DNA of 64,000 nt from Paraspadella gotoi. Lineage: Eukaryota; Animalia; Chaetognatha. Each line of letters begins with the position of its first letter. Positions within the stretch are counted from its first letter, which is position 1. A program made the translations under genes and the position numbers. The stretch spans positions 15,387,918-15,451,917 of the forward strand of contig CM119269.1 in assembly GCA_051294375.1 (NCBI GenBank). Reading direction: 5' to 3'. Below are positions 3,560 through 56,500 of this stretch, piece by piece. Below the pieces are notes generated by a model that saw nothing but the letters and a program-made list of their open reading frames with translations, was not told the origin of the DNA and ran no database searches.

Positions 3560-8875
<5,316 letters not shown>

Positions 8876-9616: not shown

Positions 9617-12600
9617 TTAAAATTGTTCTTTTAACCAAAGCGCAGAACCGACAGCTTTCAGATTTCGCAGTCCAATGAATGTCTCCATTTTAGAATCAAA
9701 TTCAATAGGACGCTGCTGCGGTGCGGTGTAGAACGGAGCCATGTTGGTTCCTGAGTAAGAAAAGCACAAAATTTCAGCATATTTTTGTACGCAGGAAACG
9801 TTCGAAATTCGTTGGTTAGACTTTGTACGTTCTTCCACCGACTGTAAATAGGGGTAGCCCCACTCAATGGGGTGAGAATGATAACGTGCTCAAACGAAAA
9901 TTTATACATTTTAAAGTAAACTTTTAATGGACAAAACATTCTTATATGGCTCAATACACAATTATTTTTTTTAATATTTATATATAGGAAAGGCCAAAAA
10001 TTTTTTTTTGAATTTTAAAATTATAAGACCAGATTCAGATAGCTCATAAAAAGCGGTCTACACAAAGTATAATTCTTTTTTAAATATTTTTATGATAAGT
10101 GTGTCAAAAATAAGAAAAACCGTAAAAAAACATCAATCATCATCTTTCGATGATTTTATCAGTTTTTTTATATTTCCACTTAGAAAACGTAGGAATTTTT
10201 AAAAGCTATAATTATATTTCTTGTTTAACTTTTTCTGCTCTATTAAAATCCATCAAAAAGTTTCAATGTTTAAAAAAAAAATTTTAAATTTTTTAATGCA
10301 TTAATCAAGACGTATAATGTAAATTTTTTTGAAAATGATTGCTTAAATATTTAGTCAAGACAACTAAAAAACTTTGCTAATAGTCGAAATTTTATATAAT
10401 CTCCGGACTTGGTCCCTACTGTAAAATGAAGTTATCGTTAATTCGGATATCCAATATATCAAGTTACTAATATATTTTCTACCATTCCAAGTTATGATAA
10501 ATTTCAATAATTTGTATTTCTGTGACTCACCTAAGTAGGATATAATTTCACAAGTTTCTTCAAATTGGGCCAGTTTTCTTTTGTACTTGTTTCTTACGTA
10601 CTCGGTGCTACGAGGATTAAATGCTGCAAAAAACAAGGTAATTAAACGTTGTGGGTAAAAAATGGTTATTCATTTTGCTCGCATACACTCGTATTAGTAG
10701 TGACCTTCAAATATACCTTTTAAGTGGAAAGCAACGTAGAGCAACGCTGATCGCGCTGGCGAGAGAAAGGGATACTTGGGTTTAAAATTCCCGGTTGCGG
10801 TCAATGCCTTAATCACCGCTGTTGCAACTGTCTGTTCCATATAACCCAGCATGGGTAAACCTGCCATAAAAGGTGTTCTCCGCTTATAAAATCTTTTTTT
10901 CTTCTACTTCTTTTCAAATTATCGTTTCTACAGGGACTTCAATCAAAAACTTGTAATATAATCAAAACGAAGAGTAATCGGGTTATAAATTCTTTTTTAT
11001 ATTAATAAAAAAAATATTTGACTGGTTTAATTTTACTTTCGCCGACCGCGGTTTTGACGTCTTTCAAAAAATTAGTTTTTATTTTCGCCGACCGGGGTTA
11101 GGGAAGGGTTAAAGTTTAGGGGTGGTTTAGGGTTAAGAGGGCTTAGGTTTAGCGTAATTAGGTAATATTATTTTTACCTTTTTTTAAAAAAAATAAATAT
11201 TTTAAAATATTTTTTAAAAACCATTAAAAATATGGTTGTGAAAAAACCATTTAAAAATTTTCACATTTTCTATGGAGAGTACTATGTATAAATATGGGCG
11301 TATGCGAAAATTGAAAAATTAAAATTAAATTTTTTTTATTTAAAAATGTTCACAGGTACAAGCCTGTTCGTGATCTACTATTCGAATTTTGATTCTATTT
11401 GATTTTAATATTTTTGCTACGCTTTACTGTACAGTGTACAATCCACACACCTGAAACATGCAAAGGCTCCAGCTTTTTGGGCGGTAATTTCCTTGGCATC
11501 GTCAGGTTAAAGTAGAGATAAGGCTTCCGCATGAATTTGACGCGTTCTTTCTCAGACCGGAAGTACCAAAATTTTCCACGGTACTGCACGACGAGACGGG
11601 GGTCACCGTCAACAATTGCCTCGTACCGGAGTCGACCATCCCGGTAAGTGACGGGGCAGTAGCCAAGTATCTCCGGCTAAAAAATCATTTGACGCCGGAT
11701 GAGGATAAATAGTAGGAAACAAAAGGGAGAAAATCAGATAGGGGAACAGTATTGGAAACTGACCTGCGCCGGGTGCTGTTCCTTGACCCAATCGGCATCG
11801 CGCTTTATCGGCAGATAGTCGGGGTCTTCAGGCAGGCGCCGCGGCGCCAACGGCGGCAGGTACTCCTCGGTCCTCTCCAAGAACGTAGCCAACTCCGCCT
11901 CCCCACTCGTCTTGTAATAGACCCCTAAGAGGTGTTTCGTTTTAATTCCGCAATGCTTTCAAATTTGACCAATTTTTTCCCCTCCCTCTTTGCGTGATTT
12001 TTGTTTAATTTTTTTGGGGGTTGGGTTATCATTTTCTTTTTTCCTTGCCTCTGTATTCTACGGCATATTTGAGGTTGTCTTCCTCGGAGCCATCTACGAA
12101 TTCACCCTCGTCCGCCAACGCCACTGGACAGTACTCGCGAAATATGCCGAGTCGGGATCGGAACTCGGCCGGACGAACGCAAAGGTGAACCAAGGACGCC
12201 GCAAGCCCTAGAAAGAGAACGAATTAACTGTTGGGGGGAACTTGTCCCAAAGACGCAATTCAATTTCTCGGCCCCGCCCCCCTTAGGAAGTCCAATAATC
12301 AACCTTGTTTAACGCGAAAGATATACTCCTGGATCTGCCTGACGACGACATAGCATTCTTCCAAGGCATGATGCCGCACCCACCACTTTGACCGTGCCCC
12401 GTCCAACGGAGACCAGTTCGCCTCCTCGGACCGGAAAAAGTTGCGAATGGCATCTTGGAAGCGAAAGAGAAAAAACGGGTATACGTTAATCGCGTCTCTC
12501 CTTATACGGATCTCGCTGGACTTACCAATGTTACTGAGATAAGCTTCTCTTTTGTATTTGAGTATTGGTGTACTATCGTGTTTGATGAATTCGGGTCGTT

Positions 12601-19500: not shown

Positions 19501-22500
19501 GTTTCCATACATTATGTTAGAATTTCCGGCTGGAGATGCACACTCACGGTGATATTTTTTGGTTTCTTGGACGTGATTGGCCTTTTCGGCATAGTTAGTT
19601 GCTTGAAATGGGCTCCTGTTGGAGACGTTGTTTGCCTTATCGCAACGCGCGTCATGTGGACTGCGATCTTGGAAGCGGTTTCAAGGTAATTCACGAATGA
19701 TGCATATGACAGCTTGAGACTTTTTATTGCCCATTTTTAGGAAAGTCTGCATTTCGCCAATGCATATAGTTGGAACAGTTACGGCTTTTATTGGAGTAGT
19801 TCTTGTAACTAAGCCGCCTTTCATTTTTGGACAATCAGGTTACTGAGTAATGTATAATGTATATTATAAAATTTATATTATCCTCTCAAAGTACAGTGTG
19901 TCCCAATGGTACTATCTGTTAACCCAAGCTTACTGCTCCTATACCAGATAGAAAAACTTAAACCATTAACATAGATAAGCGCATAAGTAAGAGCCATTTT
20001 ATAAGATAACTAATTTTTTTAAATTACACTAAGCAAACTACTGTTATTACTAAAAGTAATTGGTAACAAAATTTTTATTTATTTATTTTTTTTTAATATA
20101 TAAATTTTTATTCTTATTAATGCACTTATTTTATACGAAATTAAAGTTTGAATAAATTATATCAATTTAAAATATTTTTAATAGAATTTTTATAATATAA
20201 TTTATTTAAAAATATAAAATGTAAGCTAACAATGTCGGATCTGCCCACGATTATTAGCGGTAATTAATTAATTAATACAAACTATATAAACTAAAATAAT
20301 AATTTAATTAATAAATTAATTAATTTGATCCGAAATGTTTGTTTTCAGGGCAGTGATTTCTATTCGGGTATTTTCAACAATAAAATTGAAACTTATATAA
20401 CTATTATTTCCTTTGTTTCCACTGATTAATATAAAACACGCTTTATTTAAAAAAACGGTTGGCTATAGTTATTTTCTCTTTTATAACATCGAACTCACTG
20501 GTGAATTTCTATGCTTTCAAAATACGGTAAGACATAATTTCTTTTACCTTAAGATGAAACTAAAACGATTTTTCATGGTAAGGGCAACTTTTAAAGATTA
20601 AATTGCTCGTCAATCTATTGCGTTTTTAGATATACTACAGCTTAGGCAAAAAAACGGCATGCTATATTTTAAATTTTTTTTTCCATTTTTTCCACTATTT
20701 TTTTCTCTCTTGAACCTTCTCTCTGTCCCTCTCTTTTTCCTCTTTCTCTCTGACTTTCTCTCCCTTTCTCCGACTTTTCTGTCCTCATATTTCTCTGTGT
20801 CATCCCTTCTTTTCTTCCTTTACATTGATTCTCTTCCTCTCTATCTCTACTTTTCTCTCCCTCTCTGATTCTCTTTCATCCCTCTTTCTTATTCTTTTCT
20901 TTTCTCTTAATTGTTTTCGTTCTCCCCCTTCTCCCCATATATTAATTTTCTTTTCACTCTTTTTCTCTCTCCCTGCAACTTTTTTTTCACCTATGCTCTC
21001 TCTTCTCTTATCTTTTTCTCATTCTCACTCATTTTTTACATTTATATCACACTGGATGTATAAAAATTTTTAAAATGTATTGTAGGAAAAAAAATATTGG
21101 GTAGCGTATGATTTTATTCAAAGTTTGGTTGCCAAGCAGATTTTAAAAATCGACAGATTTTTGTGGAAATTTTTTCCGCAAAAACCTGTTGATTGAGAGG
21201 AAAACAATTACTGACGCTTTCCATTACATTAAAAGATGCGGTTTTTTTTAATTCGTCAACCTTAGTATATTTCTCATCTATTTAAAACTATAAAAATAAT
21301 CAAAAACCGAGTTTTAGTTCAAATAAAACGCACCTCACAAATCCTCACAAATTAAAAGTTGATTTAAAAATTTAATTGCTGCAAAACTATTAAATTTTTT
21401 GCCCTAATTTTTTAGGTACCAGAAGCACCGTTGAAAGGGAATATTTGATTAGATTTGTGGACATTTTGAAGTATTTTTGTTTAACAAATTGTAATAAAAT
21501 GTAAAAATGTAAATTTTGACTAGTCAATTTAAAAATTAATTCATAGGTAAACAATGAATGACCAACGGCAAATGAACCGACTCAGTGGTAAAGAAGATAA
21601 GAAGTACCCAAAATCTGGAGTAAAAAATTTTCTTCAATGATCTTGACGTTCAAATCTTAAAACAAAAGTCAAAATGGACAAAAATGGACATAATTTTTTT
21701 TATCAAAAGTAGCAAAAATTATATCAATTCTTGATTAGAAAATGCAGCAGATGATTTTAATTAATAGATAATATTCTAGCAATATTTCAAAAGTTGGTTT
21801 TTTTTGCTGAATTCCTCGATAGAAATCACTGCCTCAGGTCTTTTCATCACTGACCACGACAAAAGCAACGACAACGATGATGGCGACGATGACAATAATG
21901 CCGATAACGATTGACTGATTAATTAAAAAATTAATTGATTGAATAATTAATTAAGAGATAACTAAATAAATTGATTGATTGAATAATTAATTGATTGATT
22001 AATTGACCGATTAATTAATTATTTATTAATTAATTGACTAATTGATTAATTAACTGATTAATTATTTGATTATTTTATATATATTGAATTTACATTTAAT
22101 ATAAAAAGAAAAAGAAGCATAATCAATTAGTGAAACAGGTTTTTTGTTTTTTCCATTTAAACTCATTTTCATTCAGACAATTCCATCGAAACTTTATTTC
22201 CAGCTTAATCACACACTTTCCTACCCACATACAAAATTTCAAGTCAATCGCCCCTTCCACTTATTAGTAATTGGCGTTCAAATAGTGAAAAAAATTTTTT
22301 TCCATTAAAACTCATTTCCACTTGATTCCATCGAAACTTCATATCTAGCTCAATCACACACTTTCCTACCCACACACAAAATTTCATTCCAATCCATCCA
22401 TCCAATCAGGAGCAATTGGAGTTCTTTGCTAAGGTGGGATGGACAGACGGACGGACGGACATCATTTTTTTTTGCATAATTTATCATAATTCGATGTTCT

Positions 22501-25500
22501 GACATGATATAAGTGAATGCCCGACAAGATTGGGGGGGCGGACCGACGGACCGACAAAGTGAATTATAGAGTCGGGATCTGCTGATAAGCAAACTAAAAA
22601 TTAAAAAAAGTGAAAAACTAGGACTTTTCTGCGCAATATGGACGTAAATGTTAATGGACACTTCCATTAAGAAACAGTGTAGGTAGTGACATTCGTAAAA
22701 CGTTTTATTCTCACAATTTTATTTAAATACAGGACAAAAAAATGAATATTCTTTGAGATACATCGCTTATTTCGGCTCAGTCGTGATCGGCCTCTGTCAA
22801 GCTATTCAGTATATACTTTATATAATTCACGCAAAGGTTCACTGGGTTATATGGCAAATTTCTCCCGTACTATCTGGCATCCCTTTCGCGATCATCGCCT
22901 GTGCATTAAATGGCTCATTTAACCTTCCGCTAATATTAGACACCAAATTTACAACTAACGTAGTTGGTCTTTTAGTCGTTTCTTCGCTAGATTTGTTTGG
23001 AAGAATATTAAGAACATTCTCAACGGAGGTAATTAACCCTTATTCGTTTCTATTATTGCATCAAAATAACTTTGTTTGTAATTTTTTTCTTGATTTAAAA
23101 AAGAATTGTTTATACAGGGGTGGGACCATATATCGAGACAAAATTTTAAAAATCATTACTTTGAAACTCTTAATTATTTTTAAAATCTGAATAAATATTC
23201 AAATAATACTCTTTCTAAGTTTTTAGATGATATTAATTGTTTGGAAATTCTTTGATATAATGATTTTTTTTGATGCTCGGTTTTTCTCTGCGCGGTTTGG
23301 AAGAAAAATATTTGAATATATGGTGGACTAAAATCCACCAACCGTTCATCAGCGGCCATTGGTGCCGGAGGAAAGTCATTCGCCTCCCAACCCAAAGGTC
23401 CGGGGTTCTAGCCCGGTGGTCGTCTGGCAGTTAAGAGGGACGGGGCGCTTAACCCGCCTGTAACATGGTGTGACAGCCTGATCCGAAGCTCAGGGACTGC
23501 TTACATTGAACAGTTCGGTCACTAACACATAACAAATATCACTGTCTTTTCATTGGTGAGCCCGACTTCCGAACACAACAGCAACAACAACACTTTCAGG
23601 CGACATGCCTCAACCTGGCGATGCATTTTCCGCCCACAACACATCAGGCGACATGCCTCAACTTGGTGACAAACTTTCCACCAACAACGACAATTCACTG
23701 AAGAGACGCAACAGACTTCTCTCTACGGGAGGGGGGATGTATGGTGGACTAAAATCCACCAACCATTCATCAGCGGCCATTAGTGCCGGAGGCAAGTCAT
23801 TCGCCTCCCAACCCAAAGGTCCGGGGTTCTAGCCCGGTGGTCGTCTGGCAGTTAAGAGGGACGGGGCGCTTAACCCGCCTGTAACATGGTGTTACAGCCT
23901 GATCCAAAGCTCAGGGACAGCTTACATTGAACGGTTCTGTCACTAACACATAACAAATATCACTGTCTCTTCAAATACTTACTTTTTCATCTCATTCTAA
24001 GACATAAAAGTTAAACATATTTTTGGATGTACTTATTTGTAGTATAATAATGCTTCTGACAAGGTGTACATTACATTTTGGTTAAAGAAATTTAAAAGTA
24101 AGCAGGAAAGGTTCGGGTAAGTTACTGTTATGGATTAATTTTTATTGAAACTTACTTTTATGAAAAAAGTTATTAACCTTATTGTCAGATAATTGAATTC
24201 CTCATGTAAGATTTCTGAATATATAATAAAAGGGTCGAAACTATAAGAAATACATAAAGTATTTGACGATTTAAGCATATTCGTTAAAATATTTCTAAAA
24301 TTTTATTTTATTACCCTAAAAAAAAATTAAAGGGGTTTAATTTGGATGGTGATGAAAAGCTTAAAATCAGGTAAATTGAAGATAAGGCATAACACTGTCA
24401 TGTTCAGAAACGACAACTAAAAATATTAACCAGAATGGCTTTTATTGTGTGCAATATAATGCGTCCGCATAAAAACGACCAAATTTTGAAAACATCCACA
24501 ATGTTTTGTAGTTGCTTAAAAATTTATTTTGTTTAATTGTATACTGCGGCGCAAAAAAATGTAGTTACATATTAGCTTTAAATACCTCACTTTTTCCTAT
24601 ATTAATTTTAGGAAAATATTTCTGAAAAGTATAGCTAAAAGCTATCGATTGGTGCAAAAAAAAAATGGTTCAGACAGTAGAATACAGCAATAAAATAAAA
24701 TAAAATATGAAGACGGAATTAGAAAAGAATGATTTTTTGAGGTTAAGTTGATGATATTTTTTTTCTATCTGATAATAAAAAAAGTATTTTTTATAGTTTC
24801 CTTACTTATTTAAATTTGATTTAGGTCAAAAATGGTTTTTACCTATCCCTACAGATACGTATTCTATGCAGAATTTGTTCAGCTTATTTTATATTATAAA
24901 CATTTTATTATAGGGAAGTTATTGACTCTTATTAAAAAAAATATTTTTTTCGATTTTTGTACTAATCAACTGTAGTAATCAACTTTGTTATCCTATAACT
25001 TTCAAACACTTTGCTCTATTTTATTGGGACTTTGATTTATCGCTTCATCTTTCAAAAAGCTTTGTTTCTTATTTCTATATCTTTGTAGAATTCAGCCATC
25101 CAATACGGTTTTTTCGATGTATGGCTAAGTAAAAAGCCAGAAATAACGTTTGCCACTTATTTTATTATTGTAACTCAAATCATTCAGACAGGACAGGACA
25201 GGACGTTAAGTTTTGTCTCGATATAGGGTCCCACCCCTGTATTTATTTAAATTTTAATTTTTTATCCATAAATCAGGAAGGAACGCCGACAATAACATCG
25301 GTGACCTCAGCCTTGGACATTCCTTTTTCATACATGTGGGCTTGGATTTTTCTAGGCGAAGAGCTTGGACTTTTCCAGGCGTTGGGATCGCTATTGATTC
25401 TCTCGTCAATTATAATGGTTTCATTAACAAGCAATACAGCCATCAATAACTCAACGGAAAATGATAATAAAAGGTTAACTCTTGAGTGGCGGTAAATTTG

Positions 25501-31500: not shown

Positions 31501-34500
31501 CGACCGAGCCCGCTCTCGGGACTTCGCCCTCCTTGACTCTTGAATCCGTCCCCAGTACTGAGGCGGTCGTCGTGGGGAATTCCGCCTGGCGTGTTAGACG
31601 CCAAGCCAGACTCCGTGCCGGTTTGTAGCCCTGACGCCGAAAGAACATCAACATTTTTAATGATATTAATATACATTTTTTTTATTACTGACGATATAAA
31701 ATCTAAAACTAAATTATTGAATTCCGATACAGGATGGTCGTTTAAAATCGAACAATTCAATTGATATAAAAGTTCTACGGATTTGAAGACTGCGAGTGAG
31801 GTAGTTTAAAATTAATCGAATAACAAGACGAAAATACAAAATACATACTTATATAATGTTCAGAATATTCAAATACGCCGCCCGGTTTTTATAATAACAA
31901 ACATGTAATCCCGACAAAAACCTCCGATAGGCTGTACCTACCTCGGGAAAGCCTGTTGAACACTTTTAATTTAACAAAAACGAAAGAAACAAAATTAAAA
32001 CCGAAACACATGCTCATGGTAAAACAATTACCCCCTGCTTTATTCTCTTCTCCTGTTTCGGCATCAACAGCGACGTCGGTGTCGCTCGTCATGTCAAGAC
32101 TCTTTTGAAAACCATGGATAAAAACAAAAAAAAAAAAAAAATTGCCTTTTTTAGCCGCATCTGCTTACAGTAGATTCCGGCTCTATAATTTACTTTGTCG
32201 GTCCGCCCCACCAATCTTGTCGGTAAGTCACTTAAATCATGTCAGAACATCCGTCCGTCCATCCCCCCTTAGCTTTGAACGCTAATTACTCATGATTGTA
32301 TGGGGCGATTGACTTGAAATTTTGTATGTGGTTAGGGAAGTGTGTGATTGAGCAGGAAATAAAGTTTCGATGGAATCGGCCAAGTGGAAATGAGATAAAA
32401 TAGAAAAAAACAAAACAAATATATTTCACTATTTGAATGCCAATTACTCATGAGTGGATACTGGATAGTTCAATTGACCTGAAATTTTGTATGTGGTTAT
32501 GAAAGTGTGTGATTGAGCAGGAAATCAAGTTTCGATGGAATCGTCCGAGTGAAAATGAGTTAAAATGGAAAAAACAAAAAGTCTATTTAACTATCTGATT
32601 ATGCTTTTTTATTTTTATATTTAATATAAATTCAAGCTTCATCAATTAATTATTAATAAATTAGTATTTAATTAATTTGTAATTAATTAATAATTAATAA
32701 ATTATTTATAAAATCGAGATTGTTTTGTGATTGAGAGGCGAGACAAAGTGGAAAACGATTTTGTCATGAATAAAAAAAAATAAATTCATTAATTAATTAA
32801 TCAGATAATTAATTAATTAATTACCGCTAATGATCGTGGGCAGATCCGGCATTGTTTGCTCAAACTTGTTTTTCCTCGCCGATTAATTTTTCAGCGCAAA
32901 ATATAACTTAACGGATAACTTAAATAAAACAATAATCAATAAGAATCCAAAGGTTATCACCGGAATTGTCCAACTTACAGCCAAACTGCCGAGATCGATC
33001 CCTTCCTCCTCTCTCCTCCTCCTCTCGTCTCTCTTCTCCTTCGCCACCACCCTCTCCCTCAGTTTCTCGAACTCCAGATCGGAGAGTCTCCTCCGCTCTT
33101 CCTCCGCCAGACGCGCCTCCTCCTCCTCCCGCGCCGCCTTTTCCTCCATCATAACGATGTAAGGATCAAGGTAGTCGGCCAAATTATCCTGGATCTCTTT
33201 ATCGACTAAATCGTCAACTGCCAACGCGAACGACTTTAAGTAAGTAATAAAAACCATGCGAACCTGCCAACACCGCGGGAATTTACCTTCTCGATCGGCG
33301 ACGATGCCGGCCATATGATCGATTGATTCTTGCTCAGCCGACAGGATTCTGTTTTTTATCTGAGAAATGGAAGTGAACAATTATTTTGAGATTCTTGGGG
33401 TTATAACCGATCGATGTCAGCTCTTCTCGCCTGAATGAGGGCGTCCTGAAGGAGTGCTTCGCGGAGGGTGTTGTTCTGAGCCTCGAGTTCTCCTTCGATC
33501 GCTGGACGGAGAATGAGGCTGAGATCGACCACCGTCGCGTCGTAAAACTGGAAAAGAGGAAATTGTCACCGGGAGAATAACATACGTTATTAATAAGAAA
33601 GAAATTCTTAGCTTACCCGCGCCAACTCATTCGCCATGGTCGTCTTGCCCGAGAGATTCGGACCGATGACGGCCAATTTGACTGGGAATCTAGGTTGCGG
33701 TGGAAAAAGAAATCGGCGCGGGTTTTGCATGAAGAGATCCAGCGCCTCCTGTAGGGCGGCCATAGAAATTCAAGGACGAGGTGAAACCGGGAATAAATGT
33801 ATAAATTTTTAAAGGTTAACAGTTAACCTGTGTAGACAGGATGTAGAGCTTATCCAAAAAACCCACGGCGAATTCGGGTCTGCCTTGCACCACGTTTCCG
33901 CGCGACAGTTCGACCGGACACATACGGAGCCACTTGGAACGTTGCCACCGAAAGCGAGGCGCCAGCATGCGAACGCTGGAAATCGAGACCAAAATTGATC
34001 ATGCTCTAGTTTCTGACTAAATATATTTGTTATCCATCGACAACAAAGAAAAAATGGGCACCTGTTCAGTTTTAGAATGAGCTCTTCCGTGTCGACTTCG
34101 TCGGGGATCTCCTCGTTTTCATTGTCGGGGTCAAGCAACTGCTGGGGGACGACTGGTGGTCGACCTCCGAGGTGAGCGAGTCGCGCCTTCAGCACCCGAA
34201 ATAGGTAAGTGTTGTTGCGGTTGGCGTCCAACTCTAACACTTGGCTCTGATCGTGGTCTTAATATAAAAACAGTCAATTGTCAGTTGGAAAAATCTATAG
34301 GAAGAAACTTGGAGATAATTACCGGCCATAAACTCTCTAAGCAGGGGCAACATTTTCTGTCGGTAGACTTTGAGGTTGTTTCTGACATTATCCTCGCCGT
34401 CTTCGGGTCGACGCAAAAGTCTGTAGAGTTGCGCCTCCGACAGCTGCATCGTCAGTTCTCGCTAAAAAGGTTTATTTTGATAACTCAAAGGGCGTGCAGT

Positions 34501-53509: not shown

Positions 53510-56500
53510 CTACGTGACGCGATAAACGCTGTTGGTAAGTCTTACGGGTAATCCGCCAATGTTCACCTGGAACGAAATTATCACAATAATTACAATATAC
53601 TTATTATACTCTATATCCATCGTAACATTATAGAAAAAAAAATTTAACACGTCACCTGGTAGAATTCGACAAGTTGAATCAGATCATTGAATCGTGTTCG
53701 GCCACCGTCTAAACTGAAACACACTCGCCCGGCTTCTTGAAACTAAAAACGAAAAATCAGAAAATTAATAATTTTATACCATAGTAGAAATCTACTATGA
53801 AATTATGTTCAATAGGGGCGGGGGTTCAAAACTTTAGTCTTGAAGTCTACTTTTAGGTAAAAAAAGAATTTTTAAAAAAAGTTCGATTTTAATGCTTTTA
53901 TTGTTGTTATTAAAATTACAATATTACTATTATTACTATCTTACTATATAATGATAAAAAAAAATTTTAATCAATCTTAACTTTTTTTGATGAATTCTGA
54001 TAGAGCATAAAAAGTTAAATAAAAAATATAACTACAACTTTCAAAAATTTTTATGTTCTCTTGGTCAAAATTAATAAAAAGTAATAAAATTATCAAAAAA
54101 TGATGTTATAAATAGTTTTTCATATTTTTCACACATTTATGATCAAAATATCGAAAAAAGAATTATACTTTGTGTAGAGAACTTTTTGCAAGCTACCTGA
54201 ATCTGATCTTAAAAATAAAAAAATAAAAAAAATTTTAGGCTTTCCTATTTATTTATAAATAAACATTAAAAAATTAATATATAGAGTATGGAGTAATATT
54301 AAAATTTTTTGTCTATTCAAATTTTTTAAAAAATGTCTAAATTTTCGTTTGAGCAGGTGCTTAATTCAAATTTCTTAACCACCTTACTGAGTTAAGCTCC
54401 CCCTAACCATAGCCAGCAATAGCAGCAATACACCCCACTCACCGCGGTTATTCGAAAATGTCGAGTCTTTAACCCGTGCGCCAGCGTTAAAACGTAGGTC
54501 CCGGAGTAGCTGAGACTCTCTCGCAGCAGGAAGAGTCCGTCTGTGGCGCCATGAATCTTGATCAGGTCTTGCGCCTCCTCGCGAGAGATTTTCCCGTGGA
54601 ACCAGGGTTGGCCCAGGTGGACGGCGGCTCCGGGGTGTGGGAAGCGGGGTGGTTGGAGGGCGAGGTCTTTGGTCGAGTGAGGGCGGGGAAGCGGGGCGGC
54701 AAACCCGGCCGCGCGGTGGGGCGAGGAGGGAAGGTGGGGGGAGGGAGAGAGTGGGGAGGACCGAGTCTCGCTGCGGTCCCACCGCTCGCCAGAGGCGATG
54801 GAACGGAAGGAAGACGTCGCCCGTTGACGCCACACGTGCGCCTCCTCGATGGCGGCCCCTTCCGCTTCCACGGGGTCCTCGATCACGCGACCCCCGTCGG
54901 GACCCGTGAAGTCCATCGCCACGCGATTTTGCGACCAGTGGACATCGTCCTGCGGGCGGTTGGACGATAGACATTAACATTCAAGATATAATTATTAGAT
55001 AGCCAGATTTATCTTAGAATTGATAGAATTATTGCTTTGATTTAAAAAACAATACAATAACTGAATACATGAACTATGTACATTATACAATCTATTCTTT
55101 TTTCCTTTTTCCATCCAGTATTTAAATTTTTAACACTCACCCCTGGGGACGCCATCGTCGACGGGTAAGTATTTTGCCGGCCTCGACTCTGACTCCGCAG
55201 TTCGCGTCTCTCTCTTCGCTCCGCCTCCCGGTAATTTTCCCGAAGCTGCTGTCCGAACTTGGCCAGCCGCAGTCCCGCTAACCAGCACTGTCGTTGTCGT
55301 TCGTCCTCCACGCACACCCACAACATCTCTTTGGGCTCCGCGACCGCTTTGTCGGGCTGAGAGTTCAATTGAATTTCGTTTAATGACAAGACGGAAATGT
55401 AAATGCACCTAATTTGCGACGAGACAGAGATAAAAAGACTCGGACCCAGACATCGTCGCGAAGGGTTAAAAAGTGTGCGGAGTTCCCCCTTATCGATCGC
55501 TCACCTTTAAACAGAAACAAAACTCGGTCGGGGGATTGACTCCAGTCTTTTTGGGTTGCGTTGCCACGTAGATGCTCGACTCTTGCAGACCCGAGATCAG
55601 TACCATGTGGCGAGGTTCTTTTGATGTCCCTGGGAGACGAAAAAAAAAGCATTAAAAATAATTATATTTATTATTATGATTCTTCAAAAATTTGACTCCA
55701 AAAAATAAATATCAATTTACCCCGAGCCCGTGGCCGAAACCGGAGAGAAAATTCTATCAACTTTCATCTCTTCACATTCTATATTTAATTTTAAAAGATT
55801 ACCTTTGGAAGAGACGTAAAGACCGGAGCCACGAAGAAAAGCAAAAGCCTTTCTCCAGCTTTTCTTGCCCATCTCCCTCATAACGACGTGGCCTTGAAGC
55901 TCCGGCACCTTCTCCGAAGACGAGTTATCGCGATACCCGATGGTCTCATCGCCGACTGGATCGACGCTCACGATGCTCTGAGAAAGGATCAGTTATTATT
56001 CTTACCAAATATTGCTATAATATAAACTGGTAAACAGACTAGGCTTGAATTAACTGGTCAGACGTCAGATTGAACAATGAACACTTATGACTTTTCCTAA
56101 CCACTATTCTCTTGTAGATTTCCGCCGTTTCCAAGGTATTGGCTTCGGCGCTTAGACTCAGCATTTGCAGCGGAAACGTCTGCAGAGGATTCTTAAAAAG
56201 TTCGAAGCGACGAAAATCCTTTCGGAAGGCGAAGCGGGGAGCCGAGTCGGTCGACGGAGGAGACGAGCCTGATTATGAAAACAAATGGTCGATTTAAATT
56301 TTGCATCAATACTTTTTAGAAAACAGTTCAGAAAACAATTTTGTAAAGACTTATTCAGTGATTGATTGATTCATCACCAACTGCCCATAAAAAGAAGAGA
56401 TTACAAAAAAATCATTGAAAAAAGAACGAAGTTTCTTTAATAAAAAACTAAAATTGCATACCGGAAGCGGAGGCGAGGGCTCTGGCGAGGAACGGCGATG

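Follow-up and report, generated by a model that had tools for sequence, protein, structure and literature searches.

A type-P5 twister core is present in both LTRs of a small tRNA-headed LTR retrotransposon within a 64,000-nucleotide stretch of DNA (hereafter the window), and the best explanation, to which we give about an even chance, is that an LTR retrozyme uses it to process its RNA. The structural assignment to the type-P5 twister core is well supported, the motif is very probably twister-derived, and it is probably catalytically active in the family. The original prediction for this DNA, which is partly supported as a whole, missed the main point, namely that the LTRs of a tRNA-headed TRIM carry the motif as a fixed part. 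The features of the element and of the motif are collected in Table 1.

Table 1. Features of the LTR element, its twister-like motifs and the solo LTR, numbered from the first base of the window.
Feature	Position	Strand	Description and basis
Left target-site duplication (TSD)	23315..23318	+	AATA; identical 4-mer at 23974-23977
5' LTR	23319..23552	+	234 bp, TA...CA; LTR comparison
Terminal hairpin at LTR start	23321..23340	+	7 bp; sequence and fold
tRNA-like head	23352..23424	+	73 nt, likely Pol III promoter; by eye and fold
Acceptor-like stem of head	23352-58/23417-23		7 bp
T-arm-like stem of head			5 bp
B-box-like part of head	23404-23414
A box of head	~23360-23370		partial
Type-P5 twister-like motif, 5' LTR	23427..23500	+	descriptor, Markov, covariance-model and control tests
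P5	23427-32/23495-500		7 bp with 23426/23501
General base and neighbour	G23439, A23440
T1	23441-43 : 23483-85		CGG : CCG
Minimal P1, 6-nt linker	23444..23449	+	G.U pair capping palindromic GCGC; self-complementary hexamer GGCGCU
Predicted cut	U23450^A23451
P2 strand	23453-55		CCC
T2	23456-57 : 23488-89		GC : GC
P3	23458-76
P4	23477-81/23490-94
L4	23482-89		UCCGAAGC
Internal region	23553..23739	+	187 bp, non-coding
PBS	23554..23566	+	12/13 match to the tRNA-Trp PBS of Gypsy-32_NVi and Helenus-2_SyJa (Fig S2 in the supplement of PMC10886601)
Polypurine tract (PPT)	23727..23737	+
3' LTR	23740..23973	+	234 bp
Twister-like motif, 3' LTR	23848..23921	+	predicted cut 23871^23872
Right TSD	23974..23977	+	AATA
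Solo LTR, same family	4771..5004	+	91-92% identical; 4-bp TSD CAAC

The element (23319-23973) is 655 bp long and non-coding, ends in TA...CA, and has LTRs that are identical at 225 of 234 positions. Both insertions in the window, the full element and the solo LTR, are flanked by 4-bp TSDs (AATA and CAAC). The motif occurs in three copies, one in each of the three LTRs. By its layout the element fits a Helenus-type TRIM, a group described together with TRIMp3 by Kojima (2024; PMC10886601): it shares with these elements the short non-coding LTR design, an LTR sequence that by eye and fold looks tRNA-like, a PBS, a PPT, 4-bp TSDs and solo LTRs, and Helenus-2_SyJa/SyUm are closest in layout. Wasp Helenus families include a Trp PBS and TA...CA ends, as here, and at least five wasp LTRs in the supplement of that paper begin with TA. 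Unlike most of the families described there, whose tRNA part lies near the 3' end of the LTR with a T run after it, the element carries its tRNA-like head near the 5' end, and the twister motif starts two bases past it. No likeness in sequence between the element and Helenus was noticed by eye. The tRNA-like head was called neither by ARAGORN nor by Rfam, which counts against the reading as a retrozyme.

Several further observations concern the element and its surroundings. Half of the internal region consists of two 45-nt direct repeats that are 82% alike (23596-23688), and 23699-23707, near the PPT, is by eye complementary to the LTR 3' end beside the PBS (23543-23552), a possible long-range RNA pairing. 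A 22/24 match to the LTR terminal hairpin lies at 4598-4621, 170 bp upstream of the solo LTR, and is possibly the end of a related element. The host DNA has compact invertebrate-type genes and a CpG o/e of 1.28, which may point to a hymenopteran. The solo LTR is inserted in sense between two exons, GATase and SIS, of a GFAT-like gene (4029-8872), and the full element, also in sense, has a hydrophobic ORF on one side and an EamA-like exon on the other (22699-25492). Two other dispersed repeat families, one at 22012-22591 and 32162-32704 with internal 145-165-bp repeats and one at 9884-10259 and 53984-54358, each have inverted copies that are 74-76% alike.

The sequence and coordinates of the 5' LTR motif stand as originally predicted, and this copy has the complete set of core bases (UAA, GC, UCC-AAGC and GA-GG), including the bases of T2, the general base and the A+1 that had been described as retained. 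T1 and T2 are both able to pair in the 5' LTR and in the solo LTR. In the 3' LTR motif (UCCAAAGC) T1 is mismatched once, at 23906, and P5 once, at 23919, each time by a base that is in the minority across the family; the solo LTR has an intact core (4879-4952) and a decayed P5, so that the two defects reported for these copies are both seen. In the natural twisters tested by McKinley et al. (2024; PMC11662667), mean cleavage fell from 0.76 to 0.65 when the longer pseudoknot had a single imperfection, and the T1 mismatch may therefore weaken the 3' LTR ribozyme rather than kill it. P4 closes the 8-nt L4 with 5 bp (pairing probability 0.75-0.99). P2, 3-4 bp long in the type-P5 family and rightly described as weak here, has two pairs plus a mismatch or bulge and is unpopulated in nested folding, which counts against a retrozyme. 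P1 had been called essentially absent; a normal helix is indeed lacking, and the region is better read as a stem of one G.U pair with a palindromic loop, reaching 6 bp solely in the modelled two-copy form. That P1 can be dispensed with, as the prediction also held, agrees with a review of twisters (PMC5408937). Other registers considered by eye (canonical GAGGG at 23435-39, a type-P1 order and an HDV-like fold) were rejected, as P2 or T1 cannot pair in them.

Resemblance to a twister by chance alone is very improbable. The type-P5 descriptor (GA-x-GG, UAA, 3-5 nt, GC, P4 and UCC-y-AAGC, with x and y paired) matched, on both strands of the 64-kb window, only the 5' LTR and solo LTR copies, compared with 4.1e-5 and 8.7e-5 core matches expected per window under two order-2 Markov models; given a P4, the core passed in 21 and 39 of 60000 trials, and with P3 of at least 4 and P5 of at least 5 in addition, in 0 and 1, which is about 40-fold or more lower. 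A P4 of at least 4 pairs plus a P2 of at least 2 with a short P1 occurred in none of the 153 microbial loci (metagenome and genome) that were fetched by patterns on the same core. A covariance model built from those 39 of 88 natural P5 twisters that have a fully paired P2 placed the three LTR copies at the top of the window (21.2, 21.1 and 18.8 bits; E 0.004-0.013; next match 11.4), a test that is partly circular because the search patterns that yielded the training set derive in part from the candidate. The Rfam twister models, to which the original prediction had pointed, found nothing in the window as a whole that reaches the gathering score, and nothing at E<=10 in two narrow stretches, so the motif lies below their recognition. 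This negative result speaks for chance, as do the many windows that the scan spans and a descriptor written after the candidate was seen; against it stand the low expectation for the core, the absence of the pairings from the pattern-matching controls, and a position that coincides with the putative ribozyme slot of the wasp Helenus-2_SyJa/SyUm. A hammerhead search of the LTRs of our element gave no match, the twister-like motif being there instead.

Natural twisters of type P5 (RF02684, clan CL00120) share with the candidate the order of elements, the core bases and both pseudoknots, and the phage members of RF02684 also share its C:G T1 variant and 3-nt P2. Twisters with GACGG plus the same L4 sequence and a full P1 exist in viral and metagenome contigs, and seven matches in six loci exceed the Rfam Twister-P5 threshold (38.0-47.3 bits). 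Because the CGG:CCG swap and the 3-nt P2 both occur in such Rfam-passing twisters, they validate the motif and not its novelty. The circular permutation that had been claimed is thus present but is the known type P5, and the compensatory swap does keep the pairing but is equally not new; what is new is the context in a tRNA-headed LTR element. Among 94 distinct descriptor-positive sequences, the C:G T1 pair is found in 18 and the 3-nt P2 in 75, counts that mirror the search patterns rather than natural abundance, with at least one probable chance match among the sequences. The candidate lies below any Rfam score, and its oddities are its P1 region of 6 nt (14-30 nt in the 94 examples, most of which were fetched with a minimum length), its two-pair P2 and the A-U pair closing L4; the corresponding pair is G-C in 93 of the 94, and this is counted against the retrozyme interpretation. 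P1 is topped by a G.U pair in 24 of the 94, and one natural twister (L456) has a CCC P2 strand with merely two pairs. P1 and P2 imperfections were well tolerated among the natural twisters tested by McKinley et al., whose supplement lists about 2600 tested twisters that could include the LTR motif or a relative.

Short-P1 twisters passed in 4 of 69 loci from viral contigs (L511, its near copy L522, L538 and L563); neither L511/L522 nor L538/L563 was accepted as support for a dimeric ribozyme. L511 (280-379), like L522, has two head-to-tail type-P1 twisters in a phage, and the 6 nt that join them can be read as a twister of type P5 whose P1 is minimal. Other phage contigs (L449, L463, L479-L485 and L491-L492) hold arrays of three to five or more P5 twisters with a 3-bp P2, with a few hundred bases from one unit to the next.

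Copies of the LTR element family are numerous and scattered in organism A, where 17943 contigs of run X1 match, a measure of depth that does not equal copy number, and where contigs show many different flanks at both LTR ends; many contigs have loose ends that begin before 23319. In organism B (run X10), the one match covers 148 nt (23518-23665) outside the motif. At least seven LTR sites have both alleles at 10% or more in runs X1, X5 and X9 (among 40 of 101 rows), and only one of these seven lies inside the motif, at 23466 in the P3 loop. Three keep pairing: the variants at 23420 and 23423, both common, replace G.U by G-C in the acceptor-like stem, and that at 23426, beside the motif, turns G.U into A-U and extends P5. 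The remaining three lie in the LTR 3' tail. A narrower comparison of 23441-23500 gives 11 variants at 2% or more. The variant reaches 35-47% at 23466, 2-10% at 23465 and 99% at 23472, a site at which the window copy carries the rare, P3-weakening base, and the low-level changes are mostly at CpG, including 23485 (1-11%) and 23441 (0.3-7%). The TTTT runs of the window copy at 23547 and 23626 are likewise rare states in the family; most copies are therefore free of such a Pol III stop inside the unit, and the window copy is probably decaying. The twister core is retained across the family in these data, which are depth-weighted and come from contigs of a young family, and because of that youth its retention is weak evidence. 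For a covariation check, variants within the family are few and the searches of metagenomes, prokaryotes and viruses yielded no diverged relative: there was none among 97 metagenome loci and 56 prokaryote-genome loci, no viral contig contained a 19-nt stretch of the family, and the LTR, compared by blastn with all 367 loci collected at that stage, had no match.

Folding of the monomer is dominated by a helix between CGGG (23441-44) and CCCG (23453-56), with pairing probabilities of 0.77-0.99. A different hairpin, GUUAAG/CUUAAC, had been proposed as a switch that hides the cleavage site; its strands are perfect 6-bp complements, and we reject it on folding, as its pairing probability is at most 0.01 and the true competitor is the CGGG/CCCG helix. 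The twister-compatible fold of the monomer carries a penalty of 8.2-9.6 kcal/mol versus a median of 4.1 for 93 natural twisters, of which only 3-4% are as bad; this too counts against the retrozyme interpretation, with energies that leave out both pseudoknots and a folded copy that carries private changes. The predicted 421-nt circle of this copy, in contrast to known retrozyme circles, is not unusually structured (z -1.3, 54% paired, 13 of 100 shuffles as good), a further point against a retrozyme. These features can also be explained by a captured twister that has decayed to an inactive four-way junction of P5, CGGG/CCCG, P3 and P4, within an ordinary Helenus that uses linear RNA with a long R region. 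We regard this as unlikely, and weigh it as follows. The high folding penalty, the Rfam result, the A-U closing pair and the weakly structured circle all agree with it, most Helenus LTRs among those examined in the supplement of PMC10886601 are without a ribozyme, and a linear template would not survive being cut in each LTR; on the other side, all core bases and the two pseudoknots are kept across a large family, the common variants lie in the P3 loop or preserve pairing, and a second Helenus lineage has, by eye, a ribozyme in the same slot.

That second lineage is the Trp-primed wasp family Helenus-2_SyJa/SyUm. Read by eye, its LTRs (Helenus-2_SyJa-LTR and Helenus-2_SyUm-LTR) show all parts of a type III hammerhead immediately after the tRNA head: the cores CUGAUGA and GAAA, a GUC cleavage site, all three helices, and loops I and II that are complementary to each other. 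This hammerhead is unmentioned in the accessible text of PMC10886601, which names ribozymes only when citing retrozymes and reports none in any LTR; the TCCNAAGC octamer is found in no LTR of its supplement, where line breaks may hide matches. If the hammerhead is real, the SyJa/SyUm element would count as an animal LTR retrozyme in its own right. PMC7761336 mentions unpublished insect elements with type III hammerheads, and insect LTR retrozymes may therefore already be known to that group.

The retrozyme-like cycle that we propose by analogy, with equal weight for and against, would begin with a Pol III transcript starting from the tRNA-like head of the 5' LTR. Cleavage of both LTRs at U^A (23450^23451 and 23871^23872) would release the 421-nt unit, a host ligase would circularise it for reverse transcription, and a Gypsy element using tRNA-Trp would mobilise the element. 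Plant LTR retrozymes (Cervera et al., 2016; PMC4918200), as described in the accessible text, are likewise non-coding, with a ribozyme in both LTRs, a PBS, a PPT, 4-bp TSDs, a predicted unit-length RNA and a ribozyme fold that is blocked in the monomer, and their circles keep the hammerhead in the blocked fold. The differences are a twister in place of a type III hammerhead, an animal host, the tRNA-like head, a Trp rather than Met primer, 421 nt versus 600-1000, and a circle that is not strongly self-paired here. Animal ribozyme repeats are described as lacking LTR, PBS and PPT (in the parts of PMC4918200, PMC7229834 and PMC7761336 available to us). Twisters have been published in a retrotransposon, the Schistosoma Perere-3 (PMC8501958), whose T-variants resemble the candidate in a weak or conditional P1; this is a non-LTR element with the type-P1 order, a single 5' ribozyme and a P1 supplied by the target site. 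In the literature searched, most subscription papers being outside it, we found no twister in an LTR element, no animal LTR retrozyme and no natural dimeric twister.

The linker GGCGCU is self-complementary (chance 0.02-0.04; 5 of the 650 hexamers of the element), and the two LTR copies could swap halves so that their GGCGCU loops form a shared 6-bp P1, a double twister resembling dimeric hammerheads. A lone copy, as in a solo LTR or the mature circle, would sit in the inactive CGGG/CCCG helix. Folding results for this dimer model are mixed. When the core is kept open in the model, the 6-bp P1 does form between two copies; its cost per ribozyme is about 2 kcal/mol if free monomers are the reference (3.75 for two solo copies) and 7.5 if the free dimer is (10.5 for two solo copies). 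For the two-LTR transcript the computed energies are -190.6 for the swapped form, -189.2 for two monomers and -209.9 when free; the swapped pair is thus merely 1.4 kcal/mol better than two monomers, which counts against the model with pseudoknots omitted. A single cross-LTR ribozyme is worse than the monomer (12.3-13.6 vs 10.0-10.8), and the inter-LTR P1 has a probability of 0 when unconstrained. That efficient cleavage needs both LTRs through a shared P1 and that a lone copy is inactive is the most speculative step of the cycle, argued by analogy, and we hold it somewhat doubtful. The analogues are the minimal hammerheads that cleave as dimers in axolotl and newt retrozymes and in Penelope-like elements (as described in PMC7229834 and PMC6765202), which also have one base pair capped by a palindromic tetraloop beside the cut and two copies per transcript; they differ in ribozyme class, and their elements are without LTR, PBS and PPT.

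The small computed gain for the dimer also fits a twister that is active as a monomer, trimming the tRNA leader or processing ends, with an incidental palindrome. The chance of a self-complementary hexamer, 2-4%, leaves room for coincidence, and the dispensable P1 and tolerated P1/P2 defects of tested twisters (PMC5408937, PMC11662667) are in keeping with such a role. We judge this quite unlikely, as the CGGG/CCCG helix rules the monomer ensemble; a ribozyme of this kind would also cut the circle and host pre-mRNAs, both insertions apparently lying, on weak evidence, in sense introns.

Our broadest proposal, which remains tentative and is more probably wrong than right, is an animal lineage of LTR retrozymes that are driven by Pol III and whose ribozyme slot is exchangeable, holding a hammerhead in the gall-wasp family and a twister here, in which a natural double twister with a palindromic P1 would cut solely two-LTR transcripts and spare circles and solo-LTR RNAs. 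The design with a ribozyme in both LTRs has so far been described in plants, with a different ribozyme, the hammerhead. If the retrozyme interpretation is true, the animal LTR twister would join TRIMp3 elements and retrozymes in one design, twister ribozymes would gain a role in LTR retrotransposition, and different ribozyme classes could occupy the same slot. A dimer-gated twister, if true, would parallel the double hammerhead and provide a natural switch that cuts only the full-length precursor.
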